A DNA stretch of 64,000 bases from Candidatus Latescibacterota bacterium (GCA_965208835.1 OZ242358.1:1568001-1632000), one strand, 5' to 3'; shown: positions 5,437 to 22,747, counted from the stretch's first letter. The notes: a model not told the origin generated them from the sequence alone. Made by a program: numbers and translations.

Positions 5437-5511
5437 GACGAGTATCCTCACACGAACGCCCTGCGACAGGTGGCAATCTACGCGCTATCACGACGTGATC
5501 AACCAGAATCC

Positions 5512-5897: not shown

Positions 5898-5959
5898 AAC
5901 CTTGATTCGTAATTGTTCGGGGACGTAAAACCGAATAAATGCAAGTCCAATCCTAGGTT
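5898..5959. repeat. Intergenic repeat family A, short copy
   Basis: AACCTTGATTCGTAA...GGACGTAAAACCGAATA; ends in an imperfect inverted AATCCTAGGTT. Confidence 0.6.
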
Positions 5960-6099
5960 TCCAGTTGATGTTTTTCAACCCTTGCCCGCAACACGGTTAA
6001 CTCGTCACCGATCCTGTTCAATGTCTTGCTGATATACAGTAGTTGCAGCAGGATGAAGAACAGAAACATCCCGTTAATCACCAGAAACGCAGTGTTCAT
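5953..6099 (-). CDS. Small single-pass membrane protein (48 aa)
   Basis: GGAGG RBS before ATG 6099; hydrophobic N-terminus FLVINGMFLFFILLQLLYI. Confidence 0.6.
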   Translation of the reverse strand: MNTAFLVINGMFLFFILLQLLYISKTLNRIGDELTVLRARVEKHQLET

Positions 6100-6239
6100 G
6101 TAACCTCCGTTCAAGAGTGCGGACAATACCGGCATAGTTTAGGGCGCGAGCGTAGAATCGTTGCTTCTTCCCACGCCAGGTGATACTTCCCAAGCGGCGC
6201 CTTCCTGACCGTGCCCTGATATGTTTCTTCATCCCACTC

Positions 6240-6385
6240 CAGGCGACCCACGTAAGGTCGGCGAGCGAGGGCACTTCGACAGGCCGTTTCGACAAGCTCA
6301 ACGCAAGCAGCGCAAGCAACGTAGCGAAATGGGATGAATCGGCGGTCGAATGGTGAGGGATTTTCGGGACAGGACACCAGATTTC
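6240..6385. repeat. Intergenic repeat family C, copy 1 (island left edge)
   Basis: CAGGCGACC..CGTAAGGTCGGCGAGCGAGGG...ATGAATCGGCGGTCGAATGGTGAGG..GGGACAGGACA matches 33490-33590. Confidence 0.75.
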
Positions 6386-6569
6386 AATATAGCGACAGAT
6401 CGTTGAATTAGCATTGATTTTATCGTCCGTAGTTTTGAATTTTTCGTGAAATTCGCCTATTTTCGACCTATTCTGAGGCGGCTTTTCACGAACCTCGAGG
6501 ATTCCTGCCGTTTTTTTCCATCCATCAGACATTCATCTGGCATCGGAATTCCGGAACAGGCTCCGATCA

Positions 6570-6705
6570 ATTGCCTCCAAATAAGAGAAATATAACCCAC
6601 CCTTTGCCAACTATGCTTTCGGCTTCCAGGCACTCACGTTTTCGCAGCAATTGTGGAAAGCAATTTCGACCATGATCACAATGCCGTTGACGCCGGTCCT
6701 GTCAT
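6570..6705 (-). promoter_or_regulatory. Degenerate duplicate of the 5' region of the 7286-7501 gene
   Basis: Colinear similarity to 7503-7635, including GCCTCCAAA (GGAGG RBS), CCCTTTG.CAAC, GCAATT..GGA.AG.AATT.C and TTGAC.CCGGTCCTG. Confidence 0.55.
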
Positions 6706-6719
6706 GATGATCCCGGTTC

Positions 6720-6758
6720 AAAAAAAACAGCAGCGCGTCACCGCGCTGCTGTTTTTTT
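6720..6758. terminator. Bidirectional intrinsic terminator
   Basis: A8-CAGCAGCGCG-TCAC-CGCGCTGCTG-T7. Confidence 0.85.
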
Positions 6759-6883
6759 GAAATGAGGCTGATTGCCTATAGCGATTTCATGATGGTTATC
6801 ACTGTATTGTGGAATCCGTGGACAATGGCAGTGACCCAATTGGACCAATCAGCCCTTGGACTCTGTCGCCCAGGGGCTGTTTT

Positions 6884-7099
6884 TTAAGAATAATGCTTGT
6901 GAACTGTCTTCGGTAACCCGTGTTTCCTGCGAGGATTCATACAATCTTCCTTCTCGCAGAGCAGACCGGGTCGGCCCGGCTTGTAAGTTCCATCTCGACA
7001 CCTGTGGAACACGCACGCGTCCTTATCGTCGTAACTGCAATCAATACAGATGACCCGAAGCAAATATCGACAGCACCACCACTTGAATAGAGAATTCAT
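6884..7099 (-). CDS. Cys-rich small protein (71 aa, 8 Cys), function unknown
   Basis: AAGGAGGT RBS, own sigma70-like promoter, downstream hairpins and terminator. Confidence 0.7.
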   Translation of the reverse strand: MNSLFKWWCCRYLLRVICIDCSYDDKDACVFHRCRDGTYKPGRPGLLCEKEDCMNPRRKHGLPKTVHKHYS

Positions 7100-7129
7100 T
7101 TGATACCTCCTTTGTCCGGGTTGTCTATT

Positions 7130-7158
7130 ACATTAAGCCAGTCGACAGACGTTGTCAA
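7130..7158 (-). promoter_or_regulatory. Sigma70-type promoter of the Cys-rich gene
   Basis: TTGACA (7158-7153), 17-bp spacer, TAATGT (7135-7130). Confidence 0.6.
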
Positions 7159-7285
7159 TGACGATCCCGGAACTTCCTCCGCATTCGTCCTCACCAAAGC
7201 CGTTTCCCGGTATAGACTTCGTGGAGCACCCGAGAGTCCGGCTTTTTGAGCTTGCGGTCCCTGAGCACAGACAATGCAAGCATAC

Positions 7286-7501
7286 TCAGCGTCCCCGTTT
7301 GGGCGGGTTCTTCTTTGTCCGGCCGCCCTCGTCTCTTCTTTTTCTATCCCTCAGGATGTCGTCTGCGGACACTTTTGCATCGCGTTTTTCGATGACCCCC
7401 TCTTCCTCGTCGTCGCCTTCCTCGAACGTCTTTTCGTCATTGTCGTCGTCCTTGCGTTCCACGACTTCCTGGATCATTTCGAGTGCGACTTTGTATTGCA
7501 T
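7286..7501 (-). CDS. Small highly charged protein (71 aa; acidic middle, basic C-terminus)
   Basis: GGAGG RBS before ATG 7501; MQYKVALEMIQEVVERKDDDNDEK... Confidence 0.55.
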   Translation of the reverse strand: MQYKVALEMIQEVVERKDDDNDEKTFEEGDDEEEGVIEKRDAKVSADDILRDRKRRDEGGRTKKNPPKRGR

Positions 7502-7766
7502 AACCGCCTCCAAAATAGAGAAACAAAACTCGCCCTTTGTCAACAATAATGATACCCTTTTGTAGTTCGCGTTTCTACGGCAATTTCGGACAGAAATTGC
7601 AACCATGAGCAAAGCGTCATTGACCCCGGTCCTGCCGCCAGGTCCGAGCATCAGATGTCAATGATCGCATCTATGCGTCCGGTGCAGGCTCGGCCAGATC
7701 CGGCCACCTGAAATACGATTGAAGTTTCGGACTATCCGGCGACATTTCATAGTGATATCGGTATCT

Positions 7767-8540
7767 TCAATGACTGTCTCTAAACGGAAATGCAATTTTT
7801 GCGACTCCCATTTCGCGCTCCAGCCAACTCTCGAAGATGATATCGCGAATCTCATTTCGAACGGCCTCCGAGAGAGTTGCGCGATGAACGTCCTGAACCA
7901 AGTACAGGCCGTATCCGTTTTCAACCCTTACCGGTCCCACGATAGTTCCCGGCGACGCCGCAAATAGCAGCGGAGAAACGCCTACGGGCAATTGAGAACG
8001 CCGTACGCGTCCCACGAAACCACAAGCCAAACGTGTTTCCGGATCGTTCGAGTATCGCAATGCGAACCCGTAGAAATCCCGCGACTCCTCGGTCATCTGG
8101 ATTGCGAGTTCCTCGGCAACGGCTTCATCCGCCACCAAGATCCAATATACTTCCGCTTCATCGAAATCCAGAGTGTGTTCGGCAAAATAAGGCTTGATGC
8201 GCCCTTTCGTCACTCGCTCGGCGAGCGCACAACATAGCAGCTGGTGTTCGACTATTGAAGCCACATCATAAAGTGCCACTCCACGTGCTGCTAGCCACGC
8301 ATCTGTATCCTCGACGCGTTCCAATTGATGTATATATCGCCACTCATTTACCTCGGCCTGCAATGTGTCATGGTCAATGCGCACGCCTTCGCGCTCTGCC
8401 AATTGTCCGATTAAGTGTCTTCGGGCGCAACCTTTGAACAGATCCAGGGCGTCTAGAGCGGCCAACTCACGAATCAACCCGGAAAAGGAAATGACTTCGT
8501 CGTTCACAACAACTACGGCCGGGTCTGAGTAATCGGCCAT
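7767..8540 (-). CDS. PpiC/rotamase-like peptidyl-prolyl isomerase (export-associated foldase)
   Basis: ILVADEAVAEEL..F..FALRYS.DP....CGFVGRV.RSQLP...LFAASPG.IVGPV parvulin-type domain; adjacent to hlyD. Confidence 0.8.
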   Translation of the reverse strand: MADYSDPAVVVVNDEVISFSGLIRELAALDALDLFKGCARRHLIGQLAEREGVRIDHDTLQAEVNEWRYIHQLERVEDTDAWLAARGVALYDVASIVEHQLLCCALAERVTKGRIKPYFAEHTLDFDEAEVYWILVADEAVAEELAIQMTEESRDFYGFALRYSNDPETRLACGFVGRVRRSQLPVGVSPLLFAASPGTIVGPVRVENGYGLYLVQDVHRATLSEAVRNEIRDIIFESWLEREMGVAKIAFPFRDSH

Positions 8541-9956
8541 CTAATCCTCCTCCTGGGAGGAGAAGCCTTCAGACTCACGAAATCGCCGTAAAGGCCGCAA
8601 CAATATATCCAGCACTGTCTTGCGGTCTGTCACTATCTCTGCACTCCCCTTCATGCCATACATCAGCCGCTTGGACTTCCCGTTGACGTAAGTCGTGGAT
8701 TCTTCCAACTCTACAATACCGCGAAATACCGGCCCAAGAGTAGGTTCGTCAGTCGCGTCGGGCACCACCTTGAGTAGCTTTCCCCGCTTGATTCCATATC
8801 GGTCAAATGGAAACGAATCGTATTTCAAGCGTACCACCTGCCCGGGTCGTATGCGCCCGACGTCATTTCCTGAAATCAGCGCTTCAGCTACTATTGGCAC
8901 GTTTGCGGCTGCAAGTTTGGCCAGTGTTTGTCCCTTGGACACCACCTGTCCTAACGTGTTCACAAAAACCCGCGTAATTACCCCCGCCTCGGGCGCCAGA
9001 ATCAGGTCCAAATCGGATTCAAGCGCACGATCCACAGCCTGCCGCGCAGTTTGATAACGCAGCCTCGCCTCCTCGAATGCGTGACGGACCGCGGCGGCTT
9101 CTTGATTAAGGCGGATTTGCGCTTCCAGAATCTGGCGCTTCAAATCCTGGCCGGTTGTCTCCATGCGATGAATTTCGTCCATTCGGTTCGGCAATTCAGC
9201 TAGCGCGCTAAAGTATTGTACGCGAGCTTCATCCAGGGCCGAACGGCTGATAAGGCGATTCTCATAAAGCTTCCTGCTCGACTCATATCTCTGCCTCAGA
9301 TAATTGTGTTCTTCCGAATGAAAGAGAATCTCCGCCTCCAATTTCGTGCGTTCAGGGTTGTTGTTTGTGTCGTTCGATGATTTTTCAGAGTCAGCTCGAT
9401 AGGCATCCACGGCCTGTTCATGAGTCTTAGTCAAAGCTTGGATTATCTTCAATCTGGATTCCAGAGACTCAATCATCTCACGGGTTAAGTGCTGCTGTTT
9501 CGGTAGAGCTTGCTGGTAATCATATTCGGCCTTCAGGAATTGGACCTTAGCCTGCTCCAATTCTCGGAGTTCGACCAGTGTTTCCCGTGAGCGTAGTCTG
9601 AACAGCACCTGCCCTCCCTCGACTCGGTCGCCTTCAGTTACGCGGATCTGCTCGACTTCTCCCCCTCGAGGAGCTTGCACCGTATTCAACTGCCCGAGTG
9701 GGACCAATCGAAAAGGCGACTGTGAAACGACATCGACCTTAACTAGGCCTGCCCAGAGCAATGCCGATAACACGAAGAATACAACAATGTAAACCAGTGC
9801 CCGGGTGTACACTGGACGTAGTGAGCCGAAAAGCTCGGCTACGGCGCCAGACGGTTCGGTGTCTCCAACTAATTTTAGACCTGGATGGGGCAACTGTATC
9901 GGCCTACTTTCTGTGTTTGTGCAATTAGCACGTACGAATTCGACCGTTGCGTTCAC
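8541..9956 (-). CDS. HlyD-family membrane fusion protein (type I secretion adaptor)
   Basis: N-terminal TM helix, biotinyl-like halves, coiled coil, DVGRIRPGQ.VRLKYDSFPF.RYG, GMKGSAEIVT. Confidence 0.92.
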   Translation of the reverse strand: MNATVEFVRANCTNTESRPIQLPHPGLKLVGDTEPSGAVAELFGSLRPVYTRALVYIVVFFVLSALLWAGLVKVDVVSQSPFRLVPLGQLNTVQAPRGGEVEQIRVTEGDRVEGGQVLFRLRSRETLVELRELEQAKVQFLKAEYDYQQALPKQQHLTREMIESLESRLKIIQALTKTHEQAVDAYRADSEKSSNDTNNNPERTKLEAEILFHSEEHNYLRQRYESSRKLYENRLISRSALDEARVQYFSALAELPNRMDEIHRMETTGQDLKRQILEAQIRLNQEAAAVRHAFEEARLRYQTARQAVDRALESDLDLILAPEAGVITRVFVNTLGQVVSKGQTLAKLAAANVPIVAEALISGNDVGRIRPGQVVRLKYDSFPFDRYGIKRGKLLKVVPDATDEPTLGPVFRGIVELEESTTYVNGKSKRLMYGMKGSAEIVTDRKTVLDILLRPLRRFRESEGFSSQEED

Positions 9957-12900
9957 CTATACGGCGTCAATTTGCTGACGCGTAAGATGGAAATATAGAC
10001 CCTGCTTCTCGACCAGATCGATGTGGCTCCCCGTCTCGACAATATGTCCGCGATCAAGGACGACAATGGCATCGGCATCCCGAATCGTGCTGAGGCGGTG
10101 AGCAATGACAAAGGCTGTTCGGTCTCCGAGCATTTCCGCCAAACCTTCTCGAATCGCATGCTCCGATTCCGTATCCAGGGCATTGGTCGCCTCATCGAAA
10201 ATCAAGATGCGAGGATCGTGATAGAGCGCACGAGCAATGGCGACGCGCTGCCGCTGACCGCCGGAGAGTCCAATGCCCTGCTCACCCACCTTGGTTTCAT
10301 AACCGATTGGCATCTCCTCCACTACTTCGTGCAAATGGGCAAGACGTGACACTTCGAGCATGCGATCCATATCCAGATCTTCTACCCCCAGAGCGATATT
10401 ATCGGCAATAGTACCACCGAACATAAACGGATCCTGCAGCACCATCCCCACTTGCCGGCGCAACGAGCCAGGATCAAAATCCCGTAGGTCGATCCCATCA
10501 AGCATCACACGTCCGTCGGTGGGATCGAACAGCCTGGGAATAAGCTTTACGAGTGTCGTCTTGCCGGCTCCGCTACGTCCCACGATCGCCACCTTCTGCC
10601 CTGGCTCAACCTCAAGGTTGATGTCGTTCAGCACGTAAGGCTCTTCAGGCCCGCCGCCGTAACGAAAGAAGACCCTTTCGAGCACGATCTTTCCACTAAC
10701 CTGTTTGAGTGTAACTGCATTATCGCCGTGGCGCGATGCTTCCATCGGCGTCTCATAAATATCGTTCAGTCGATCAAGCGCGATGCGCGCTTCCTGGACT
10801 TCAGGCCACAATCCAATTAGACCCAGAATTGGTCCGGTCACATTGCCGATCATTGCGTTGAACGCCATCAATTGCCCGACCGACAGTTCCCCGTCAATCA
10901 CCAATGTTGCCCCGTACCAGAGTATAAAAGTACTACTGAAAAGATTCATCAATCCCCCGACGGACCCGAACACCATCCCGATCTTCGTACCATGTAATCC
11001 GACCTGGATCTGTTTCGTGAAACGCTCCTCCCATTTCCATCGCGTATCTCTCTCTACTGAGGCCGTCTTCACGGCGTCAATTCCGTGCAAGGAGTCGATG
11101 AGCACCGACGACTGTTCGACCTCTGCCAAAAAAGCGCGTTGGCTGAGCGACTTCAATATGGGCGTGTAAATCAACGTCAGAATCACAGAAAGAGGCATAA
11201 ATGCGAGGACTACAAGCGTTAATCGGGCGTTATAATAGAGCATCAATCCCAGGTAAACAAACAGCATCACCACATCCAGTACGACTGAAATCGTCGTGCC
11301 GGTCAGGAGTCCTTGAATGGTCGAGTTTTCTCCAAAGCGGGTCGTAAGATCCCCGACCCGTCGCAATGCAAAGAACCGCATTGGCAGGTTCAGTAAATGT
11401 CTGTAAAACCTAGACAACATCGTGATGCTCAATCGAGAGCTCACAAAAGCAATCAGATAAGTTCGTAGCGCCGACGTTGCCATTTGAAAGAGGGCAACGA
11501 CAACCATCCCTACGAGCATAAGATTCAACAGCTCGCGATCCTGATGTACTAAGACGCGGTCGACGATGGTCTGGGTGAAAATTGGGGACGCCAACCCGAA
11601 CAAGCTCATTACAAGCGACGCCAGCAGCACCTCGACAAGAACCCCTGTATACGGTCGAACCAATGGCCAAAAGCGACGAAAGGAAGTTCTCGTAGGCTCG
11701 TTCTCCGCAACGCGGTCCGTATAGGTTATTCTCAACGCGACGCCCGTCCAGCCGCGCTCGAACGCCTCTATGGAAAGCTTCTTGACACCTAGCGCAGGGT
11801 CGGCCACCATGACGTAATCATCCGAAACCCGGAAAAGCACCACAAAATGGTTGCCCTCCCAATGTACGATTGCGGGCAGGTTTACAAGCTTGAGATTCTC
11901 AAACCCGGTACGTACACCCTGCGTCACGAACCCCAATGTCTCGGCTGCTTCGGCCAACCCCGCGAGCGAGGCTCCCTGGGCGGATACATTTGTCATTTCG
12001 CGCAGTTTATTCAACCCAATCGGCATCCCGAAATGCTTGCAGACCATGCCCAGGCAGGCAGCCGCGCAATCCGTCTCGTCGTGCTGACGGATGAATGGAA
12101 ACCGTCGGACAACTAGGGAACTACTGTCCCGCTGCGACGTGTGCTCTGCGTCAGGAATATTCCCATTCTCAGCCTCAACCTCCTTCTTTCCGATTGTTGG
12201 ATCGGAGACAGGAATATTTACCGGAAGGTTTGCAGCCCCTTCTGACGCCGGTTCGATTAGTCGGTTTTCGATTAATTCCAACCCTGCCCGTCGTATACCA
12301 GGTAAACGGTCAAAAGCACGCAGAAAATCGTCCTTTGACAACGAATAGACCACGACGTCAGTTTTAGTAATGACGTCAGCAGGTTGCTGAACGCCCTTTA
12401 CGAGCGCAAGTGTACCAAAAAACGCGCCGGGCTTAAGCTCGCACGACGTCGTTTTCTGTCTGTCAGTGCTCACCGCCTCCATCTTTAGCCGTCCCCTCCC
12501 CACGAGGAAGAAACGGTCACCGGCATCCCCCTGGCGGATTATCCGGGTTCCTCCTGAAACCCGATCTCGTTTCAATTCTTGAAACAGCGCCTGCAGGACA
12601 TCACGGTCTTCTGGGCCATCCATTGCATTCAAAAAGCGAGTAAAATCCCGATATGCAATCTCAGCAACCTGCTCCTCAAGGCTATTTTTCAATTCTCGAT
12701 TCGATGCAACCGCTTTCAAGAAACTCGATTTGGAAACTCTCAATAATACTCCTGGCTCCGTAGCACGGACGGTAGCACGACGCGCCAGCTTGGTCAACAG
12801 CGCGCCCTCCCCGAAATGATCGCCCGGATAGAGATAACCAACTGTCCGCGGTCGTAACTCGATGCCGTTTCGGGTCACCCTAAGCCTTCCAGACCTCACA

Positions 12901-13022
12901 ATGTAGAAGGCGTCACCCCGGTCTCCTTCCCGAAAGATCACAGTACCCAAGTCAACATTGATCGAATTGCCTAATTCTGCCAATTGTCGAACAAGCTCGA
13001 ATCGTTTGGACAACTTACACAT
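9957..13022 (-). CDS. Peptidase-containing ABC transporter: 2x cNMP-binding + C39 peptidase + ABC TM + ATPase
   Basis: Two cNMP domains (IFREGDRGDAFYIV..G...HFGEGAL; IIRQGDAGDRFFLV); C39 QHDETDCAAAC, NHFVV, VADPA; Walker A GRSGAGKT, LSGGQRQR, DEAT. Confidence 0.93.
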   Translation of the reverse strand: MCKLSKRFELVRQLAELGNSINVDLGTVIFREGDRGDAFYIVRSGRLRVTRNGIELRPRTVGYLYPGDHFGEGALLTKLARRATVRATEPGVLLRVSKSSFLKAVASNRELKNSLEEQVAEIAYRDFTRFLNAMDGPEDRDVLQALFQELKRDRVSGGTRIIRQGDAGDRFFLVGRGRLKMEAVSTDRQKTTSCELKPGAFFGTLALVKGVQQPADVITKTDVVVYSLSKDDFLRAFDRLPGIRRAGLELIENRLIEPASEGAANLPVNIPVSDPTIGKKEVEAENGNIPDAEHTSQRDSSSLVVRRFPFIRQHDETDCAAACLGMVCKHFGMPIGLNKLREMTNVSAQGASLAGLAEAAETLGFVTQGVRTGFENLKLVNLPAIVHWEGNHFVVLFRVSDDYVMVADPALGVKKLSIEAFERGWTGVALRITYTDRVAENEPTRTSFRRFWPLVRPYTGVLVEVLLASLVMSLFGLASPIFTQTIVDRVLVHQDRELLNLMLVGMVVVALFQMATSALRTYLIAFVSSRLSITMLSRFYRHLLNLPMRFFALRRVGDLTTRFGENSTIQGLLTGTTISVVLDVVMLFVYLGLMLYYNARLTLVVLAFMPLSVILTLIYTPILKSLSQRAFLAEVEQSSVLIDSLHGIDAVKTASVERDTRWKWEERFTKQIQVGLHGTKIGMVFGSVGGLMNLFSSTFILWYGATLVIDGELSVGQLMAFNAMIGNVTGPILGLIGLWPEVQEARIALDRLNDIYETPMEASRHGDNAVTLKQVSGKIVLERVFFRYGGGPEEPYVLNDINLEVEPGQKVAIVGRSGAGKTTLVKLIPRLFDPTDGRVMLDGIDLRDFDPGSLRRQVGMVLQDPFMFGGTIADNIALGVEDLDMDRMLEVSRLAHLHEVVEEMPIGYETKVGEQGIGLSGGQRQRVAIARALYHDPRILIFDEATNALDTESEHAIREGLAEMLGDRTAFVIAHRLSTIRDADAIVVLDRGHIVETGSHIDLVEKQGLYFHLTRQQIDAV

Positions 13023-13611
13023 GTGCCCTTCAAATTGAGTTCAGTGATATCTGCGCAGGTTTCCGTGACCGAAACGGACGTCCGATATATTATTCCTTAG
13101 AGGGCAGATCATTCACAAAAAATGCGATCGGAATTCCTTCAAGAGTTGAACACGTGACTGAATACATCCAGCGGAGTATAGTGACGAATCAGACGTCTCT
13201 ATCCAGGGATTAATAGACGTGGTCGATCGAGAAATCGTCTAAACCTTCGGCAAAGGGAATCATGTCAATAGTGACGTCAAGGAAGGAAAAACCACATTGC
13301 GGGTAGTCTGCGCGATTTGCGGATACATTGCGAGGTGACTTGCGAGTTCATCGGGACTGCGGGAATCGGCAGAATCCTTGCTGGATAGCCTCTCGGTACT
13401 GCGGGGGACAACAATGGAACACTCCGTACCGGACTCAATGCACGACGGATGGGTACTCGGAATACGACCAAGTAGATTCTCTGCTGTGAAAGTCCCATAA
13501 TCGGCCAAAAACCCTGAGCATTTTTGAGAAAACTGACTGATATCGATTAAACGAGAGTTTTGGCTCCAAATTTGCACGCATACTGGTTCGGTCCAAATTG
13601 GCGAACGAAGT

Positions 13612-14394
13612 TCATCCCAATTCAACGCCCAACTCTTCGAACGGAATTACGTCCAAGAAATAGCGGATTAGTGCGACGAGTGTGTTATTTGTAATATGCA
13701 TGACAATTGGTCCGTTTAGAGACCTTGTGGTTTCGAATATATACACAGCAACAACGCCAAATAGGAAATGGTAGAACAAGGCATGTATTGCAGCGAATGC
13801 GGTTGTTTCGGAAATAGTCAAGACGTGCAGGCCGGAATAAACAAGAGCTGATACCGCTCCAGCATTAAGGACGGAGATGCGCTGACTCAGTGCGCGATAC
13901 AACAAACCGCGAAAAAGGTACTCCTCGATAATTGAAACGAGCGATGTTGTAATCAAAAACACGAGCAAAGTAACGCGCCAGTCAATCGGGTTCCTAGGTG
14001 GTGGGAGTTCGAATAGCGGGCTCGTCTTCGGGTAAACGGCCAAGGTGAAAAACCAACTTAAAGAGACAACGGCAGTTCCCGCAATTATAGATAATATTAG
14101 AGAACGGCGGTTACAACGTAATGTATTCCAAATGTGTCTTGGGGAAATCGACTGCCTTTTAAGGAAAGTGGCAAAAATCGGCAGCACGACTGCAAATAAC
14201 GCCACATTACGCCCGACTTCGACGAAATATCCCGAAATTCCTGGAACTTGTGCAAAGGGTGAAAACGACAGCAATGCAGAATTAATCATCCTCGCCAAGG
14301 GGAAAGACACCTGTAATAATACAAAGTATACAACTATACTTGCGATTGGCACTTCCATCGGCCAAGATCGATCTATGGAATGGTGTGTTCTCAC
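13612..14394 (-). CDS. CPBP (Abi/CAAX type II) intramembrane protease
   Basis: Multi-TM; IIEEYLFRG, YSGLH, MHITNN motifs. Confidence 0.88.
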   Translation of the reverse strand: MRTHHSIDRSWPMEVPIASIVVYFVLLQVSFPLARMINSALLSFSPFAQVPGISGYFVEVGRNVALFAVVLPIFATFLKRQSISPRHIWNTLRCNRRSLILSIIAGTAVVSLSWFFTLAVYPKTSPLFELPPPRNPIDWRVTLLVFLITTSLVSIIEEYLFRGLLYRALSQRISVLNAGAVSALVYSGLHVLTISETTAFAAIHALFYHFLFGVVAVYIFETTRSLNGPIVMHITNNTLVALIRYFLDVIPFEELGVELG

Positions 14395-14500
14395 AGTTAA
14401 TTTGGAATCGTCGTCAGATGTTTAATTCAATACATAGTTGACATTGTGGCATCATGCGGACAGTCTGCTCAAATCCAAGCTCGTTATTCAATCGGTGTTT

Positions 14501-15823
14501 TTATCCATTTTTGCAATTGCGGCCGTGTTCGCAACGGTTGTAGTGGACAACGAAGATACGGTAAGCGAAATATAGAACCGCCGAGAAAACGACAAGAATC
14601 CCCAAAAGCCAAGCGAGTGCGGCACTTAGGTTGCTATCCCGACCCCAATATCTTAGTCTGGTAAGCTCTGCCCGGTGTGACAATAACGATTGGATATCGT
14701 TACTATTCGTAGTGGAATCGGCTCGAATCGTGTTACGAGCGAGGACGTACAACGAATCTGCTATCCCAAATTTGCCCAATTCTTTGTTTATATGTCCCAG
14801 AATAGCCATGGACTGCGCAACCTCTGCGTGTTCTTCGCCCAATTCCCGTCGCCGTATAATAAGCGCCCGCTTCATCAACGGTAACGCTGCAAGAAAGTTA
14901 CCCTGCTGAGCATAGTTGTTCGCCGCACTGTGCAATACCTCAGCGACGTGAAGAGATTCCGGGCCGAAGGCAGTCTCAGAAACTTGGAGAGCACGCTGTA
15001 ACAGGGGCTCCGCTTCTGCATATTCTCCTTGGTTACTATGATTCTTCGCCAGGTTGAATAGAACTGTAGAGACACTACCGTGGGTCTCACCCAATGCTCT
15101 CTCGTATATGTCCAACGCGCGCAGGTAGAGGTTTTCCGCGGATTCATACCTACCCTGTGAATTGTAACTGTTCGCCAGTCCGTTCAATGTATGTGCTACA
15201 TCAGAACTATATTCACCGAAAGCCGTCGTCCTTATCTCAAGTGCGCGCGTGAAGAGTTCATCCGCACGTTCGTATTTGCCCTGGTCCCTGAGGTTGCGGG
15301 CGGAATTGTGTAAAAGACTCGCAATTTTCGGATGATTCTTGCCAGAGATCCTCTCTTGAAGTTCGACCGCGCGTTTAAAGGTCCCTTCCGCAATTTCGTA
15401 TCGGTGCAGTTCGTAGTATGACCACGACAGACGTCTCATCAACGACGCAAATATAGTGTCGTCTATATCACAACCGTTATCGATAATACCCAATGCGAGT
15501 CCAAGACAGAATGCTGCATCCTCATGCTCATTCTGATCGAAGTAGATGGAACCAAGTTCCTCTACAATTACGAAATGTTCGCATTGAAGCCCGTGACCCC
15601 TGGCTTCCCGTAGGGCGCTGTTATATTGCTGGACTGCAGTGACGTAATCGTCTCTTTCCAAGGCATTCCGAGCGGCCGCGTGATATACCTCCCAAGATAT
15701 TTCGTTACTTTGTATCGTGGAAATGAACAGAAACATGTGGATGTACAGGACGGATATCCTTCTTTGGAGGAACTTCAATCGTACCTCCAGTACCCCTTGA
15801 CGACTAAGGTGTCGCGTAGCCAT
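14501..15823 (-). CDS. TPR protein (kinesin-light-chain-like 42-aa repeats) with N-terminal hydrophobic segment and C-terminal TM anchor
   Basis: Repeats such as VAHTLNGLANSYNSQGRYESAENLYLRALDIYERALGETH; C-terminal AALAWLLGILVVFSAVLYFAY. Confidence 0.85.
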   Translation of the reverse strand: MATRHLSRQGVLEVRLKFLQRRISVLYIHMFLFISTIQSNEISWEVYHAAARNALERDDYVTAVQQYNSALREARGHGLQCEHFVIVEELGSIYFDQNEHEDAAFCLGLALGIIDNGCDIDDTIFASLMRRLSWSYYELHRYEIAEGTFKRAVELQERISGKNHPKIASLLHNSARNLRDQGKYERADELFTRALEIRTTAFGEYSSDVAHTLNGLANSYNSQGRYESAENLYLRALDIYERALGETHGSVSTVLFNLAKNHSNQGEYAEAEPLLQRALQVSETAFGPESLHVAEVLHSAANNYAQQGNFLAALPLMKRALIIRRRELGEEHAEVAQSMAILGHINKELGKFGIADSLYVLARNTIRADSTTNSNDIQSLLSHRAELTRLRYWGRDSNLSAALAWLLGILVVFSAVLYFAYRIFVVHYNRCEHGRNCKNG

Positions 15824-15916
15824 GGTACAGCTTGCTCAGTTAATTCGGACATCGTCGGTGGTGAACCGCCCGCTACGTGCCAATATAGAGTGAGACAACT
15901 CTCCCTCCGAGCTTAA

Positions 15917-16510
15917 TGTCGTACATTGGGCGGAGAGGAGAGCACGAGATGAGGTCAAGCATCGATGTTGGAGACAACGGCAGCAAGGGGTCTCTGGTTG
16001 TGGAGGTCCCGCGCGGAACCTCCACAACCACGAGGCCGGATCCCCCTGAACCGGCCGCCGGCCGAAGACGACGTATGATACGTGCGGCCGAATACCTCGC
16101 TCCGAGTGTGGGTGTGGCTTCGGCCTGCCGGGCATTGGGTGTGGCGCGGGTGTCGGTATACCGTCATCGCAAGCCACATCCAACGTGTCCGGCTCGGTCG
16201 CGCCGGTCTTCGCCCCGTGCACTTTCTCCGCAGGAGCGTGTCCGGGTCTTGGACATCCTGCACGAGGACCGCTTCGTGAACCGGGCACCGGCAGCCGTGT
16301 ATGCCGTGCTGATGGAAGAAGGACGGTATGTCTGCTCGACCCGGACCATGTACCGGCTGCTTCACGATGCCCACGAGGTGCGCGAACGGCGCAACCAGCG
16401 ACGTCATCCACGGCTCGAACCACCCCTGTTGGTGGCCAGTGCGCCCAACCAGGTGTGGACGCGGGATATCACCAAGTTGCCGGGACCCCGAAAATGGGTG
16501 ACCTATCCCC
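15917..16510 (+). mobile_element. Truncated IS3-family insertion sequence (transposase remnant)
   Basis: Starts TGTCG; VASACRALGVAR..VYR, RALSPQER, YVCSTRTMYRLL, APNQVWTRDITKLPGP, then breaks off before the DDE core is complete. Confidence 0.8.
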
Positions 16511-16794
16511 GCGACGTGGTGCCAAATTGATCGGCACAAGGCCACCCCTCGTTGGCCGGCTTCTCCTACCAAAAAGCTGGCCAAGGACATGCTCATAACG
16601 ACGACAGAGTTCGCTCACCTCTACATCGGCCTGTCTTCCGCGCTCTACCTTCGTGGATGCTCCTTCGTAATTGGGACGCCCATCCTCGTCGGTCATGAAC
16701 TGCTCACGGAACACCTTTGGAGGTGGGAACCCTCAGTTTTAAGAATCGGTTTCTTGTCTCACTTTCGTACAAACAATACATTCCCTCAACTGGC

Positions 16795-17190
16795 TTATGA
16801 TCCCTTCGCATCCTTTTTTTTCTGCTTAGTATCGGATTCCGGTGGAGGTTCCGGTGGAGGTTCTGGACAAATTGGCGGTAATAAAACCGGCGGACTAGAG
16901 AAAATCTCGGCGATCGTACCAAACAAACCACCGCCGCCGCCGCTTCCATTGGACCCTTTATTCCAAACGTCATTTTGAGTCCGTAAGTGGTCCGTGTCGT
17001 TTAGACTCTGTCCCGGTTGAACCGAGGATTCGGGGTGCACATAGTCAGACGAACGCAAACCACCTGTATTCCCAGAGGGGTTCTGCCCTTGACCTCCCCA
17101 TACCCTCTGAAGTTCCGTTCGGTCCAATACTTGCTCACGAGCTCTCAAATTGTCGCGGGCCACTAGTAATGTCTGCGAATTACGGGTCAT
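16795..17190 (-). CDS. Double-glycine-leader exported protein / bacteriocin-like precursor 2 (131 aa; Gly/Pro-rich core)
   Basis: AAGGAGG RBS; leader ends LDRTELQRVWGG, matching the L-x3-E-L-x2-V/I-x-GG C39 cleavage consensus. Confidence 0.75.
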   Translation of the reverse strand: MTRNSQTLLVARDNLRAREQVLDRTELQRVWGGQGQNPSGNTGGLRSSDYVHPESSVQPGQSLNDTDHLRTQNDVWNKGSNGSGGGGGLFGTIAEIFSSPPVLLPPICPEPPPEPPPESDTKQKKKDAKGS

Positions 17191-17452
17191 TTCAGTTCCC
17201 TCCTTACGGTTATGGTTAAAACTGAATATCCTTCGCGTCAACTTGACAACTCAACTCATCTTCGCCTCCTTTCCTCTTAGCGATTGCCGAGAGCCCGCTT
17301 GTCGAACATCAGTGAACGGATAGCGTCCACATCGCTTAATTCATACACTGATATTCCACTATTATGCTGAACGCGCCTGCACGTGCGTGTCTCGCCCGCG
17401 CTTGCTTTCGCACGGGCAAACAGACCGTCTTGCTTTTGTCTTCGAAAGTGGC

Positions 17453-17521
17453 TGTTAATGATCGGGCAGATGGAGCCATTTGAGGATCGCCATAATGGTG
17501 CCATCGCGCCGATCATTGACA
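17453..17521. mobile_element. Miniature TG...CA inverted-repeat element (IS21-like ends), copy 1
   Basis: TGTTAATGATCGG...CCGATCATTGACA, flanked by GTGGC/GTGGT (imperfect 5-bp duplication); second copy at 20879-20972. Confidence 0.6.
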
Positions 17522-17637
17522 GTGGTCTCCTATTTTTATTGACGGATTAACGGATGGCCGTTTGATTGGCCAGGACCGCAAGCAAGTATCTGACACTTGG
17601 GCCAGAATCCTTCGCCAAGACACCGAAAAACTCCTTC

Positions 17638-18840
17638 CTATTTTGCTTTCCTGGATATCAACTGTCTAACTATTGGACCAAAAACAACATCATTCAATAA
17701 GGGCTTTAAATGGAAATCTAGCTCTATGCCATTAAGAACGTCGTGGGACAAATCGGCCGATTTCTCTAACGCCGCATACGCCTTTGAAAACTCTCCCTGC
17801 ATGGAATAAACTCCAGCAATATTGTAATGAATCAACGCGAAACTGGGACATACCTCAATCGCCGTCCGAAAACTGACAATCGCCTCACCGTGCTTCTTCA
17901 ATCTTGCCAGGGCAAGCCCACGGTTGTTCCATGCGTCACAATCGTTGGGATCGATATCTAATGCATTATCAAAGTTTCGAATCGCTTCTTTGTACCGACC
18001 AAGTTCCAAAAGGGCATCTCCCTTGGAATAGTATACAGTGGGGTCTTTCGTGTTGAGTCCAAGCGCCGTGTCGTAACTGGCGATGGCGTCCACATATCTC
18101 TCGAGTTTTGATAGTGTAACTCCGTGTGAGTGCCAGGCTTGATGTGAATCTGGATTGATGTTCAGTCCAGTTCTGTAACTAGCCAAGCTGGCTTCTAAAC
18201 GGCCAAGCTTGTCCAATACGTTTCCCAGATTCATATGAGCATCGAAGTAGACTGAGTCCAATTCGATCGCCCTCAGAAGTGATTTGGACGCATCGTTCAA
18301 TCGATTCAGCTTTATTAATGGTCGTGCGCGAGCGTTCCAGAGTTTGGTATTCTCTGGCTGTGATTCTATGGCTTGGTCAATGGACGCCAGCGACTCCGGA
18401 TGCTTTCCGAGGGCGTCAAGGGACCTCCCGCGCCCCAAGATCGCTTCAGTGTAACTGGGGTTGATCGCCAACGCCTCATCATAGCTCTTGATAGCCGACT
18501 CGTATTGATTCAAACGTTCCTGAACTAAGCCGAGATCTTTCCATGCTTCGTGCACATCCGGTGGATTGAGCCGAATTACCGTTTCTAGATGCGCCGAAGC
18601 TTCGTGAAAATGCCGGCTCTTTGCGAACCTTAGAGCTTGATTCCAAAGCCTATAGGGATCATCGCCCCAATTGGTCGGATTTTCGTCCAACGCGCCGTAA
18701 GCACACTGAGAAGAGCAAAGTAATATACAAAAACACAGTCTTGCGATAAAAAGCTGACGCACAACCCACCCTAATTCAAGGCTCTTTGCAATGCCAATTA
18801 AATATGGATTCATTAGGCTTTCTTTCATAACAACCAGCAT
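17638..18840 (-). CDS. TPR protein with probable signal peptide and C-terminal YNIA..YS cap repeat
   Basis: Many 34-aa TPRs (AW.N.G..L..L.RY.EAI.SYD.AL.INP); hydrophobic LCFCILLCSSQCAYGA; true start may be downstream. Confidence 0.88.
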   Translation of the reverse strand: MLVVMKESLMNPYLIGIAKSLELGWVVRQLFIARLCFCILLCSSQCAYGALDENPTNWGDDPYRLWNQALRFAKSRHFHEASAHLETVIRLNPPDVHEAWKDLGLVQERLNQYESAIKSYDEALAINPSYTEAILGRGRSLDALGKHPESLASIDQAIESQPENTKLWNARARPLIKLNRLNDASKSLLRAIELDSVYFDAHMNLGNVLDKLGRLEASLASYRTGLNINPDSHQAWHSHGVTLSKLERYVDAIASYDTALGLNTKDPTVYYSKGDALLELGRYKEAIRNFDNALDIDPNDCDAWNNRGLALARLKKHGEAIVSFRTAIEVCPSFALIHYNIAGVYSMQGEFSKAYAALEKSADLSHDVLNGIELDFHLKPLLNDVVFGPIVRQLISRKAK

Positions 18841-19047
18841 TGGCTTTTAGACGGTGAAATGAATTGGCGCTACAAAAGGGACTCAGGAGAGTCGGGTACT
18901 ACCGAATCGAGTATCGACTCTTTCAAAATACCACAAACTGTGAAACGCAACAAGAGATGCATCCTCGGTATCCGCTGGCTGGATTATCCGCGTAACGCGA
19001 AGAAAATGTGCTTGAAATGTGCTGAAGTTCGCCCGGTGGTTGGTGTC

Positions 19048-19500
19048 TCAATGAACATGACGATAGTGAGAGTTGTGCGGCGATGGCAGGGCCGTTTCAG
19101 GCGCGTCAATTTGCCTTAACTGATCACGTGCCATGTTGCGGACATTTTCCTGGTTAATATAAGGTATCGTGACTCGGCTGGTATCGCCTCCATAGGTTGC
19201 TGCTTGGCCGATTATCGTCAAAGCGATTATTTCTTTTTCCTTTTTCTTATCCTTGGCCAGCTTCGATTGACCGAACGAGCCTAAGCCGTCCCAGAATTCC
19301 TTTTTTTTAGTTTGGTCCGATTTTTTTCCTCCCCATGTATCGTAACCAGAGTGCTTCGTGCCGCCAGCGCTCCTTTCTCCAGTTACGGACCGCATCTCCG
19401 CTCTAGTCAACGTTTTGGTACGAATTGACAGATCTGAGTTCGCTTGTGCCTTGAGTTCATCCCGTTTGGTAGCCCCAACTGCTGTTATTTTGACAGACAT
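19048..19500 (-). CDS. Double-glycine-like-leader exported protein / precursor 1 (150 aa)
   Basis: AAGGAG RBS; leader ends LTRAEMRSVTGE (GE in place of GG); L-x2-R-x3-L-x-R-x-E pattern shared with precursor 2. Confidence 0.65.
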   Translation of the reverse strand: MSVKITAVGATKRDELKAQANSDLSIRTKTLTRAEMRSVTGERSAGGTKHSGYDTWGGKKSDQTKKKEFWDGLGSFGQSKLAKDKKKEKEIIALTIIGQAATYGGDTSRVTIPYINQENVRNMARDQLRQIDAPETALPSPHNSHYRHVH

Positions 19501-19790
19501 GCTGTGTTCTCCTTTTTTCCAACTTGGTGGATGGTCCGTTTTTCGCTTGTTCGGAACAATTGGCAATGAATGGGAAGTCGTTCCCGTCCCAGGTTCATAT
19601 TAGTGGTGGGACATAGTCAGCCTGTCTTGGTTTTTCCGACATGGTCGGTCATTCGGAAGAAGACGCAAACGGAAAGGCTAGCCGTCGTGCTAATTCTGGT
19701 AGCATGCGTTTCGCCGCGCCGACGAAACTGTATAGAGGTGACTGCCGATCAACTCTCACACGTTCCGATTAAATGCCGCTGTAACGATCA

Positions 19791-20513
19791 TTAATGTGCG
19801 TCGCCGGTATCAGACGCTCCCGGCAAATCCTTCCTGAAATACCGCTTGCGATATTCCGCCGGTGAAATGCCATGAATCCGGACGAACGCTTCGCAAAGGC
19901 GTTTGGACGAACGAAACCCACATTCGGCGGCGATTTCCTTCATGTACATTGTCGTTTCGGCAATTAACCGTTCTGCCCGGGCGATCCTGATCTCTCTCAG
20001 TTTTTCCCGAAATGTCTTTCCGAAATATTCTCTGAATAGCCGGCAACCGTATGACGGCGTAAACCGGAATTCACGCCTGACGTCATCGAAACACAGGTCC
20101 GGATTGCTGTAATTCGCATTCAGAAACGACTCCATCCACGTCATCCGAAAATTCCGTGAGTTCACGGAATTGTCTGGTGTTTCCGGTTGTTCCTCTTTCT
20201 GCCTGGCACGGTCCAATCTTCCCACAAGTTCAATCAGCTCTTCTGTCAGATCGAGGGGCGAGGCTGAAGTGACGACGAACAGCCTGGCCTCGATTCTCTC
20301 CGTACTCGAAGTCCCAGGTCGTGTTTTACCATGCACGATCTGTAGCTGCATGTCGGCAGTTGCAATGTCAAGGGCTCGGTTCAATAAATTCCTGAACCCA
20401 TTTGACGCAGTTTTCGCGAAGAAAATTTCATACGGAACCTCACCCAGGAGTTCCTCAAGCCTCGATTTGACTGCGGGGTCTCCCTCTAAAATGAGGGCCC
20501 TGTGCCGTACCAT
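19791..20513 (-). CDS. AraC-family regulator with degenerate N-terminal receiver-like domain
   Basis: C-terminal RLFREYFGKTF..LREIRI.RA.RL...IAAECGF......F....GISP.EYRK; N-terminal RALILEGD...DIATADMQL. Confidence 0.85.
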   Translation of the reverse strand: MVRHRALILEGDPAVKSRLEELLGEVPYEIFFAKTASNGFRNLLNRALDIATADMQLQIVHGKTRPGTSSTERIEARLFVVTSASPLDLTEELIELVGRLDRARQKEEQPETPDNSVNSRNFRMTWMESFLNANYSNPDLCFDDVRREFRFTPSYGCRLFREYFGKTFREKLREIRIARAERLIAETTMYMKEIAAECGFRSSKRLCEAFVRIHGISPAEYRKRYFRKDLPGASDTGDAH

Positions 20514-20516
20514 TTC

Positions 20517-21240
20517 AGGCGCAATCAAAACGTGACTTCCAGGGCGATTCCTTCCTTAAGTGACGACCAACGCGAGGGTTTTTAGGGAGACCCGACGATC
20601 CATAATCGATATCCGATATGGAAAAATAGTCCCGTATAGACTTCACCTCTCGTGACTGCTATTCAAACTATAATCATAATAGTATCGAATAATCTGCTCA
20701 CGCAATTCAAAAAGAATCCTTATACTTGTCATTTGTTCCGCGAATTTGCACTTTTCGATTGATTTAATTCAACACGATCCGACAATTCGTGAAATCGTGA
20801 TGAACCGCGCGGCCGATCACGTGATTCCAGTTGAAGGCACCGCTTGTTGCAAAGGCGTATGGAACGACGTATATCTCATGTCAGTGATCGGGTTTATGGA
20901 GCCATTTGAGGATCGCCATAATGGCGCCACGTGAAGATCGGCGTAATGGCGCCATTGCACCGATCATTGACAAGGCGCAATCGAAACGTGACTTCCGGGG
21001 CGATTCGTCCCGTAAATGCCGACGATTGCGCCGTTGTTTCAGGACAACTGGTGATCCATAATTGGCATCAAATACTATTATTCACTCTATATCTATCCAC
21101 GATCCCTGACTGCCGATCAATTAGTGAATATTATAATATCGAATAATCTACACGCGCAATCCAAAAAGATTCCCTGTATTTGTTATTTGCGCCGCAAATG
21201 TACACTTTTCGTTTGATCTGATTCAGCATAAATTACAATG
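20517..21240. repeat. Diverged direct duplication (~270 bp) of the regulator upstream region
   Basis: 20517-~20786 vs 20973-~21239: AGGCGCAATC.AAACGTGACTTCC.GGGCGATTC, GATCCATAAT, TATCGAATAATCT, CACTTTTCG.TTGAT. Confidence 0.75.
20879..20972. mobile_element. Miniature TG...CA inverted-repeat element (IS21-like ends), copy 2
   Basis: TGTCAGTGATCGG...CCGATCATTGACA with an extra 25-bp TAATGGCGCCA-containing unit. Confidence 0.6.
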
Positions 21241-21553
21241 TGACGCATTGTGCGACAGTCTCTTGCATCTTCTGAAACGGGGGCATTATCCGGATGTTCG
21301 GCCTGTATCAGATACAGAATTTCGTGAATCCGGTGCTATGAATAGAATATAAGTTATTCTTCTGTTATTGAGATTCTCCGTGTGTTCTGGGCGCAGAGCC
21401 ACCGCACTCCGCTGCTCCATCCACGGCTCATCGATTCTCTCGACAAATCATCCAAATCTTCAGTCCCACGCATTCGGACTGGCACCTCGATAGGATTCCA
21501 CACAGCGCCCCACGGCAAGCCGGGTTATCGTGCGGGATCGTCCCATTCCGGGC

Positions 21554-21582
21554 TTGACATTGTCCGGGCCGGGCTATATGAT
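21554..21582 (+). promoter_or_regulatory. Sigma70 promoter, probably giving a leaderless mRNA
   Basis: TTGACA-17bp-TATGAT; ATG 7 nt downstream and no RBS. Confidence 0.6.
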
Positions 21583-21589
21583 CCGTCCT

Positions 21590-22747
21590 ATGAAAACGGG
21601 CGGGGCGACGTTCGACGTTGTTGTGGCGGGCCTGGGCGCGATGGGGAGTGCGGCGGTATATCATCTGGCAAAAAGCGGCATGCGGGTCGCCGGCTTTGAC
21701 CGGTTCCACCCGCCCCACGCCCGCGGATCCTCGCACGGACACGCGCGGGTGATCCGCGAGGCCTACGCCGGCGGGCCCGAGTACGTGAATCTGATCAGGC
21801 GTGCTTACGCATTGTGGGAAGCCCTGGAAGATGAGAGCGGCGCGGAACTGTTCCGGACGTATGGACACCTCTCCATGCGGCCACCAGGCGGGGAGGAGCG
21901 CCTCGGTGTTCTCGAAAGCGCCCGTGCGTTCGATATCCCTGTCGAGCGGGTCTCGGCGGAAGACGTACGGCGGCGTTATCCCATGTTTCGGGTCGATGAC
22001 GGCTGGGAGGGCATCTTCGAACCACGGGCGGGCGCCGTGTTTCCCGAGGCATGCATCGATGCGCATCTGAGGCTGGCGCAATCTGCCGGGGCGGAGCTGA
22101 ACTTCGACTGTCCGGTTCTGGACTGGACCGCGGATGGGAGCGCGGTGCGTGCGAAAACGCGGTCGGGCGAAGTATCGGCGGACAGGTTCGTCGTCTGCGC
22201 GGGCGCCTGGGTCTCCCGGCTGGTGGCGGACCTGGCGCTTCCGGTGGAAATCGAGCGGATGACGCTGTTTTTCTTTCGGCCGCTGCAGAACCCGGGGATG
22301 TTCGTGTCCGGCCGCTGTCCGAACAATACCTGGGTGAACGAGGACGGGGTTTCGTTCTACTGTCAGCCGGACTTCGGGCGGGGTTTCAAGGCGGCATTGC
22401 ATTGCGGGCGCGCCGGGGTCAACCCGGACACGCTCGAGCGGAAGACGTCTCCGGACGACGAGGCTCAGATTCGTCCGCTCGTGGAGCGGTTCATTCCCGA
22501 CGCGGCGGGGCCCGTTGTCGAGAGCCACGTGTGCATGTATACCAATCTTCCGGACACCAGGTGGATTGTGGATTGCCACCCCGGGCATGAGCGGGTGATT
22601 ATCGCATCGCCCTGCTCGGGGCACGGGTTTAAATTTTCGTCCGTGATCGGAGAGATCGTGGCGAAAATGTGTATGGGCGAAACCGAAGCGGCGGATCCCG
22701 GGATGTTCGGCATCGCGCCGCTGCTGGCCGGAGGATCGCGGACATGA
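21590..22747 (+). CDS. solA: N-methyl-L-tryptophan/sarcosine oxidase family FAD oxidase
   Basis: GLGAMGSA, GSSHGHARVIREAY, CMYT, PCSGHGFKFSSVIG. Confidence 0.85.
   Translation: MKTGGATFDVVVAGLGAMGSAAVYHLAKSGMRVAGFDRFHPPHARGSSHGHARVIREAYAGGPEYVNLIRRAYALWEALEDESGAELFRTYGHLSMRPPGGEERLGVLESARAFDIPVERVSAEDVRRRYPMFRVDDGWEGIFEPRAGAVFPEACIDAHLRLAQSAGAELNFDCPVLDWTADGSAVRAKTRSGEVSADRFVVCAGAWVSRLVADLALPVEIERMTLFFFRPLQNPGMFVSGRCPNNTWVNEDGVSFYCQPDFGRGFKAALHCGRAGVNPDTLERKTSPDDEAQIRPLVERFIPDAAGPVVESHVCMYTNLPDTRWIVDCHPGHERVIIASPCSGHGFKFSSVIGEIVAKMCMGETEAADPGMFGIAPLLAGGSRT

Follow-up and report, generated by a model that had tools for sequence, protein, structure and literature searches.

Candidate exported proteins with divergent double-glycine-type leaders beside a cNMP-domain peptidase transporter in a Latescibacterota genome

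We analysed a stretch of 64,000 nucleotides from a Candidatus Latescibacterota bacterium (GCA_965208835.1 OZ242358.1:1568001-1632000), here called the window. Two small genes on its minus strand, A and B, lie upstream of a gene for a peptidase-containing ATP-binding cassette transporter (PCAT), within an island of low GC content. Each gene encodes a predicted leader of the double-glycine type followed by a long, hydrophilic core. We consider it probable, from sequence comparison and a structural model, that both are ribosomally synthesised precursors and that the island's own PCAT exports the proteins derived from them. As they appear to carry a cleavable leader that the neighbouring PCAT would read, the two genes most likely encode secreted proteins.

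Two candidate cargo genes and the transporter locus

Two open reading frames (ORFs) lie where the first-pass annotation of the window had placed them, with leaders and cores of 33 and 98 residues (A) and 42 and 108 residues (B), and both leader strings that it quoted are present (Table 1). It had also described the ribosome-binding sites as strong, and indeed a Shine-Dalgarno sequence stands 8 nt 5′ of the ATG in each gene (AAGGAGG in A, AAGGAG in B). Searches of protein libraries comprising 5.8 billion non-redundant sequences and 1.84 billion representatives at 50% identity returned the homologues P0001 (97% identical) and P0002 (68% within the alignment) for A, and P0003 (79%) and P0005 (76%, a fragment) for B. 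Between A and P0002, 18 of 20 residues are identical over leader positions 14-33, 24 of 50 over core positions 34-83 and 31 of 35 over core positions 84-118; B and P0003 share 16 of 20 residues over leader positions 23-42 and 60 of 63 over core positions 88-150. Conservation is highest in the leader's recognition part and in the C-terminal part of the core, which is the pattern expected of a leader joined to a functional module. The reading frame of both genes is kept to the last residue in the diverged homologues. In addition, a contig of 5643 nt (run X8), diverged by about 6-11%, has A, the TPR gene and B in the same order, and the two 1-nt indels that fall 5 nt apart within its B leader leave the frame restored. 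A and B are real, conserved genes.

The gene model of B in the protein collection is P0004, a protein of 115 residues that starts at the internal Met36, and the B leader, at window positions 19396-19500, is consequently hidden in that model. Other cargoes of the family described below may be under-annotated in the same manner, with their starts called too late. A was not found in the genomes of 40 relatives, and a search of longer proteins with A gave no match.

The PCAT downstream of A and B is intact in its architecture. Its C39 peptidase domain matches PF03412 at 131.8 bits (cut-off 22), and the protein further matches PF00664 (167 bits), PF00005 (117.6 bits) and, in two stretches N-terminal to C39, the cyclic nucleotide monophosphate (cNMP)-binding family PF00027 (140 bits); the score against TIGR01193 is 530.7 bits (cut-off 523.85). 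Residues 304-1017 align with the solved PCAT1 (residues 9-724; E 4e-133), and residues 312-1014 align with ComA. Gln313, Cys319, His392 and Asp408 are invariant in eight relatives, and we take Cys319 and His392 to be the catalytic residues, by comparison with C21 and H99 of PCAT1 (PMC6959990). The window PCAT is the sole full-length C39 exporter in the genome, in which at least eight TolC-like genes are found elsewhere.

The distance from the PCAT gene, upstream and on the same strand, is 3.8 kb for A and 6.0 kb for B, and the gene order at the locus is cargo, membrane protease, PCAT, HlyD-family adaptor and PpiC-like protein (Table 1). Two genes for tetratricopeptide repeat (TPR) proteins stand among them; the likeness of the two proteins is at the level of the repeats only, and they are not duplicates of one another. 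Promoter and terminator scans did no better than on shuffled sequences, and an Rfam scan of window positions 5000-22000 gave no match.

Table 1. Features of the A/B locus, in window coordinates.
Feature	Position	Strand	Description and evidence
Cargo gene A	16795-17190	minus	131 aa; predicted leader residues 1-33 (nt 17092-17190), ending W-G-G; core residues 34-131
Cargo gene B	19048-19500	minus	150 aa; predicted leader residues 1-42 (nt 19375-19500), ending T-G-E; core residues 43-150
PCAT	9957-13022	minus	1021 aa; two cNMP-binding stretches, C39 peptidase, ABC transmembrane domain, ABC ATPase
HlyD-family periplasmic adaptor	8541-9956	minus	471 aa; TIGR01843 213.2 bits (cut-off 208.65); Pfam HlyD_3
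PpiC-type rotamase-like protein	7767-8540	minus	257 aa; related to TIGR04500 ("putative peptide maturation system protein"), 87.5 bits (cut-off 180)
CPBP/Rce1-like intramembrane protease	13612-14394	minus	260 aa; PF02517 54.8 bits; candidate immunity or processing protein
Second TPR protein	14501-15823	minus	440 aa; hydrophobic C-terminal segment; Pfam
Transposase-like ORF fragment	15916-16530	plus	HTH_32 (PF13565) 20.9 bits, below cut-off; no integrase domain
TPR protein	17638-18840	minus	400 aa; hydrophobic N-terminal segment; between B and A; Pfam TPR families
AraC-family regulator	19791-20528	minus	Upstream of B; PF12833 69.4 bits
Low-GC island	5437-21529		About 16.1 kb; 0.48-0.54 GC (2-kb windows) against 0.595 genome-wide; holds the whole locus

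A leader family beside cNMP-domain transporters

The likeness between the leaders of A and B, proposed in the first-pass annotation as a common signature, goes beyond chance. With the two leaders aligned from the predicted cut site, seven of their last 20 residues are identical (BLOSUM62 score 29), a score reached by one of 5000 composition-preserving shuffles and, at any offset, by nine of 1000. BLASTP (E 0.025) and hhalign, run on two small alignments (E 0.022), both align the leader region only. The double-glycine positions L(-12), E(-8), L/M(-7), a hydrophobic residue at -4 and G(-2) are present in both proteins. A fits the published leader consensus L(-12)xxxE(-8)L(-7)xxxxG(-2)G(-1) (PMC6959990, PMC6363468), with V at -4; there are 17 such places in the six-frame translation of the genome, and A is the sole one beside the PCAT.

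PCATs with the domain order cNMP, C39, ABC occur in 35 of 41 genomes searched (this genome included), often in several copies, and small ORFs with leaders of the double-glycine type stand just upstream of the PCAT in 20 regions examined. We surveyed 77 loci, taking one genome per species and accepting leader matches at E <=0.01, and found 87 leader-bearing ORFs in 42 of them, all upstream on the PCAT strand at 115-9157 nt (median 2282), a range into which A and B fall. Upstream leader-bearing ORFs are present in 40 of the 45 loci labelled Latescibacterota and in none of the nine cNMP-PCAT loci labelled as other phyla. A lack of other leader-bearing ORFs near homologous PCATs had been named in advance as the finding that would speak against A and B being substrates; such ORFs are instead present at most of the Latescibacterota loci surveyed, and the view of A and B as substrates of the neighbouring PCAT, with a conserved leader and unrelated cores, gains comparative support from these 40 loci.

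Six related loci were annotated (L081, L049, L072, L058, L041 and L042). A gene of the CPBP family lies between cargo and PCAT in four of them (L081, L049, L072 and L058) and a gene of the DUF3267 family in two (L081 and L072); the remaining two have glycosyltransferases (L041) or a transposase (L042) in place of membrane proteases. In the three annotated loci whose scan took in the ORF after the PCAT, that ORF encodes HlyD, and a PpiC-like gene comes after HlyD in all five loci scanned at that position, L041 lying outside that scan; the PpiC-like protein of one relative scores 78.8 bits against TIGR04500 (cut-off 180). The common order is one or more cargoes, CPBP and/or DUF3267, PCAT, HlyD and PpiC-like.

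The closest PCAT relative of the window protein is found at L041:5180-9680 (genome G015), where a lone cargo gene directly follows two large glycosyltransferase genes, a hint that the cargo may be glycosylated in that genome. At L058 and L079, some cargoes end in a run of five to seven cysteines followed by Asp-Asp, and others have Pro/Trp-rich tails or long Gly-rich stretches. The diversity of cores within this one phylum is very large.

We built a hidden Markov model (HMM) of the family from 12 leaders and then from 82 distinct foreign leaders, and searched 95,256 six-frame ORFs (8.6 million residues) of the own genome. B ranks fifth (E 0.12, or 0.035 with the C-terminal 21 columns), and the four ORFs above it are the four cargo ORFs of a second locus in the same genome, described below. 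Among the 82 leaders, the conserved columns are L at -19 (82), L at -12 (79), G at -2 (81), E/Q at -8 (73) and M/I/L at -7 (71). A pattern of eight columns (-19, -16, -15, -12, -8, -7, -4 and -2), accepting at each the residues found in at least three of the 82 foreign leaders, matches five of the 95,256 ORFs, namely three second-locus cargoes, A and B; an earlier, hand-made version of the leader pattern gave four matches. B also weakly matches the bacteriocin-like leader model NF047798 of NCBIfam (E 0.03, below the cut-off), and six typical family cargoes gave no match to the NCBIfam leader models. We read A and B as carrying a divergent subtype of the family leader.

That A and B are ORFs by chance, or ordinary proteins of the cytoplasm that have nothing to do with the transporter, would fit the lack of any family or structure match for them. 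This is very improbable given homologues that keep the frame, strong ribosome-binding sites, a leader pattern matched by five of 95,256 ORFs, and a position and strand typical of the family.

Docking was addressed with a model of the C39 domain (PCAT residues 300-445, alignment of 8 rows) and the first 50 residues of A (3 rows), next to three controls. The complex scores 0.77, against 0.02 for the best control; the mark for this score is reached by 116 of 157 solved complexes and by two of 215 mismatched pairs. Contact agreement between the runs is at least 81%, and the partner reaches a predicted local distance difference test (pLDDT) of at least 55. The modelled interface joins PCAT residues 316-320, 349-355, 368-373 and 390-393 to residues 17-35 of A, and places the Gly-Gly at the Cys/His site. 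Since similar complexes have already been solved (PCAT1-CtA, LahT-leader), the score is to be read as likeness to them and not as binding.

We picture the following course, in which binding is taken from the model and in which we infer cleavage, export, regulation and an antibacterial role of A and B. The last ~20 leader residues would form a helix displaying L(-19), L(-12), E(-8), L/M(-7), V(-4) and G(-2), and this helix would dock in the groove of the C39 peptidase. Cys319 and His392 would then cut A after W-G-G, between residues 33 and 34, and B after T-G-E, between residues 42 and 43. The cores of 98 and 108 residues, unfolded and very hydrophilic, would pass through the ABC transporter, the HlyD adaptor and an outer-membrane channel encoded elsewhere, and the two N-terminal cNMP-binding domains probably make export respond to a nucleotide messenger. 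Within the cores, the functional modules would be the conserved C-terminal parts. The cores most likely act in bacterial competition in the manner of microcins, and the CPBP protease, perhaps with the TPR proteins, may protect the producer.

Predicted cut sites, cores and possible roles

Several observations weigh against A and B being cargoes of this kind. Just three diverged homologues of A and B were found in protein libraries of the size given above, and neither family was found among JGI metagenome contigs. The family HMM misses the leader of A, which ranks 3232 or 13592 among the 95,256 ORFs, and the pattern test was not blind, as its eight columns were picked after A and B had been seen. 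The transposase-like fragment between A and the transporter genes makes co-transcription unlikely. Neither core resembles a known bacteriocin or is predicted to contain a membrane segment (the best 19-residue hydropathy is 1.26 in A and 0.59 in B), and both are more hydrophilic than all 85 distinct cores of the family. AlphaFold2 models them with low confidence (mean pLDDT 54.3 for A and 35.6 for B) and gives no confident helix at the D-x-W segments discussed below. An HMM built from leaders of the A/B type, the check suggested in the first-pass annotation, finds no further cargo in the own genome; the best match in the related loci, a cargo at the G017 locus with a PCAT that is one of those nearest to the window protein, reaches E 0.21 only. 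Finally, A has Gly at -1, whereas the B leader ends in Gly-Glu and not in the Gly-Gly, Gly-Ala or Gly-Ser that is typical of such leaders (PMC6363468).

The Glu at -1 raises the question of whether B is uncleaved, differently cleaved or decaying, with A as the sole working cargo. In line with this, P0003 has Gly-Gly at the same site, a difference of one base. However, Gly-Glu recurs in P0005, in whose leader the N-terminus has diverged, and at this site contigs from runs X5 and X7 read the same as the window. In about 22 of the 82 family leaders, the residue after G(-2) is neither Gly nor Ala (it is Leu in the rows listed). The -1 position thus seems relaxed in this lineage, and the near identity of the B core to that of P0003 over residues 88-150 also speaks against this reading. 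We hold failed or altered cleavage of B to be unlikely, though of the alternatives to cargo function in both proteins it is the one to be taken most seriously.

The cores themselves are unusual. That of A weighs 10.2 kDa (98 residues), with a pI of 5.2, a grand average of hydropathy (GRAVY) of -1.00, 14 Gly, 14 Pro and one Cys; that of B weighs 12.1 kDa (108 residues), with a pI of 9.7, a GRAVY of -1.03 and many lysines. Across the 85 distinct family cores, the median length is 39 residues, a single core has at least 98, no GRAVY falls below -0.99 and net charge has a median of -6. A and B are consequently outliers, long and very hydrophilic, with B also cationic, and the earlier remark that their cores are unusually long agrees with these figures.

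Neither core leads to a known protein. A matches nothing in Pfam or NCBIfam, and searches of PDB sequences with A and B gave nothing below E 0.07. Exhaustive HMMER searches with B returned its own homologues and four long repeat proteins only (DUF5018-related, Big_9); B also reached E 0.0093 against PF00073 (16.1 bits, cut-off 20.7), which we take as chance. In the ESM Atlas, B had no usable match, and the neighbours of A include double-glycine bacteriocin and ComC clusters at low scores (0.77-0.81), a lead only.

The first-pass annotation had further claimed that both cores contain D-x-W followed, at identical spacing, by a hydrophobic helix, as a shared amphipathic motif. The presence of these elements stands: D-x-W occurs at core position 41 in A and 12 in B, with a hydrophobic stretch 12 residues on in both, and each is kept in the protein's own homologue. 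A shared ancestral module is nevertheless the least credible of the alternatives considered here, and the likeness is best put down to chance. The two 24-residue windows have the Asp and the Trp only in common and score 0, and a better 24-mer was found in all 1000 shuffled core pairs. The distances from the cut site are unequal, neither BLASTP nor hhalign aligns the segments, and the models offer no confident helix there.

Composition brings up another possibility, namely that the cores are extracellular structural or adhesive proteins of low complexity and neither toxins nor signals. The Gly and Pro content of A, its mostly coil-like AlphaFold2 model and the GRAVY of about -1.0 of both cores would suit such a role, as would the Lys-rich B, in which residues 88-119 look like a beta-hairpin and weakly resemble the repeated first strands of Ig-like/DUF5018-related domains of surface proteins. 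We did not accept the four repeat-protein matches of B as homology, since they are inflated by five to seven repeats per protein and cover short stretches, and keep them as a weak lead to a beta-hairpin. Cores of the family are moreover hypervariable and mostly short, which better fits conflict systems, and we regard a structural role as improbable.

CPBP genes are commonly linked with bacteriocin immunity. The hypervariable cores, the CPBP genes adjoining the cargoes and the location on an island point toward an antagonistic role. A and B might instead be exported by the PCAT as signals or developmental factors, with export switched by a nucleotide messenger, as proposed for HetC. The two cNMP-binding stretches of the PCAT would suit such a function, and HetC, which has a cNMP domain that binds ppGpp in vitro, is thought to export a signalling peptide (PMC10986499). 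An AraC regulator stands directly upstream of B, and the cores are without bacteriocin-like hydrophobicity. However, signals are usually short and conserved within a lineage, whereas these cores have 98-108 residues, A is absent in 40 relatives and the island is strain-specific; CPBP genes also flank the cargoes. Signalling is in our view about as improbable as a structural role, and export for bacterial competition remains the preferred reading.

Known systems, the island and a second locus

We read A and B as double-glycine-leader PCAT cargoes, a known general kind though of unusual size, at a locus that would work like one for the export of class II microcins or double-glycine bacteriocins. 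Class II microcins are about 5-10 kDa when mature, unmodified and hypervariable, and those of the microcin V type, with CvaB/CvaA-type export, share with the window locus a diderm host, an N-terminal double-glycine signal, a C39 ABC exporter with an adaptor of HlyD type, and hypervariable products (PMC12219008). In contrast to these systems, the A and B leaders, of 33 and 42 residues, are additionally conserved at -19, -16 and -15, two cNMP-binding domains are part of the exporter, a PpiC-like gene follows HlyD, the neighbour is a 260-residue CPBP protease and not a small immunity protein, and the cores, at 10.2 and 12.1 kDa, are without sequence relatives among known microcins.

The domain order cNMP-binding, C39, ABC is that of HetC of Nostoc PCC 7120, whose peptidase and ATPase are needed for function and whose cargo is not established in the account given in PMC10986499. 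We liken the two by domain order; the window PCAT differs in having two cNMP stretches and adjoining candidate cargoes. With CtA, the cargo of PCAT1 from Clostridium thermocellum, A shares L(-12), E(-8), L(-7), G(-2) and G(-1), and the modelled C39-A interface uses the same leader positions as PCAT1-CtA, LahT150-leader and ComA. Those systems are Gram-positive and without adaptor or cNMP domains, and A and B are 1.5 times longer than their cargoes (CtA is a small protein of 66 residues; PMC6959990).

The nearest company of A and B is the Latescibacterota cNMP-PCAT cargo family delimited here, which we did not find in NCBIfam. They agree with it in strand, upstream position, accessory genes and conserved leader columns, and differ in their divergent leaders, in cores that are the longest but one and the most hydrophilic, and in having TPR genes instead of DUF3267. 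The NHLP/Nif11 systems (TIGR03796, TIGR03794), together with TIGR04500, likewise combine long Gly-Gly leaders, a PCAT with HlyD and a PpiC-related partner (TIGR04500). Against the PCAT and adaptor models, however, the window scores stay below the cut-offs (575.4 against 853.3 for TIGR03796 and 52.6 against 156.2 for TIGR03794), and A and B match neither the NHLP nor the Nif11 leader models. TIGR04500 appears in the literature searched in papers on graspetides only. Among the papers listed, supplements aside, there was no description of these Latescibacterota leaders and none that brings Latescibacter together with a bacteriocin or PCAT.

Taken alone, this would be an ordinary bacteriocin-like locus of a known general kind. 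If the reading of A and B is true, they would be named, testable cargoes for a cNMP-domain PCAT, of which HetC, the one characterised example, comes without an identified substrate. The uncultured phylum would have many secreted peptides and small proteins that lack annotation (87 ORFs at 42 loci in our sample) and that standard gene calling partly misses, as with the start of B. A and B would also widen the range of size and hydrophilicity of double-glycine cargoes, and B would be a natural test of Gly-Glu as a workable cut site.

The locus looks like an acquired island at an insertion hotspot. The island is flanked by a DMFA2-like gene ending at 5436 and an oxidoreductase gene starting at 21530. 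In 14 genomes of the same genus, these flanking genes are 52-60 bp apart in five, 3-18 kb apart in seven and unresolved in two; none of the seven other inserts at the site matches the PCAT query. The N-terminal 457 residues of the window PCAT are 56-57% identical to copies in three genomes of other genera, and identity to same-genus copies is 45-48%.

The second locus (L118, G000:C1:4370001-4386000) lies at about C1:4.378-4.384 Mb and is typical of the genus. It contains four cargo ORFs of the family type (C1:4382716-4384160, minus strand), together with two CPBP genes and a DUF3267 gene. All that remains of its PCAT is a single cNMP fragment and positions 2-58 of the 133 of C39; the transmembrane and ATPase parts are missing, which leaves the island PCAT as the sole intact one in this genome. 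Beside the remnant stand AbiJ-like, GmrSD, SIR2-like and methylase genes, and this defence block has apparently replaced the rest of the transporter operon.

A wider scenario, which we offer tentatively and consider possible rather than likely, would bring these observations together. Latescibacterota may possess a lineage-specific secretion system gated by a second messenger (double-cNMP PCAT, HlyD and PpiC-like protein), with its own leader family of ~37 residues that tolerates residues other than Gly at -1, and each clade would have dozens of hypervariable cargoes. In the present genome, an insertion of defence genes would have destroyed the ancestral transporter, and a mobile 16-kb island would have brought a replacement that serves the four orphaned ancestral cargoes along with the island's own two, which are outsized and hydrophilic and would form a new class of double-glycine proteins of 10-12 kDa.

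Several repeats were noted within the island. A repeat of ~67 nt with an internal palindrome occurs upstream of A (17455-17521) and upstream of the AraC gene (20881-20972), and at the copy at 17455-17521 contigs from runs X5 and X6 are broken or joined in different ways. Two pairs of direct repeats (20517-20774 and 20973-21228), of 102 and 122 nt, 75% identical and about 455 nt apart, begin at the 5′ end of the AraC gene and reach, on its upstream side, almost to the right end of the island. At the opposite end, a perfect 24-nt inverted repeat (5512-5535 and 5636-5659), with 100 nt between its arms, lies just within the island's left edge.

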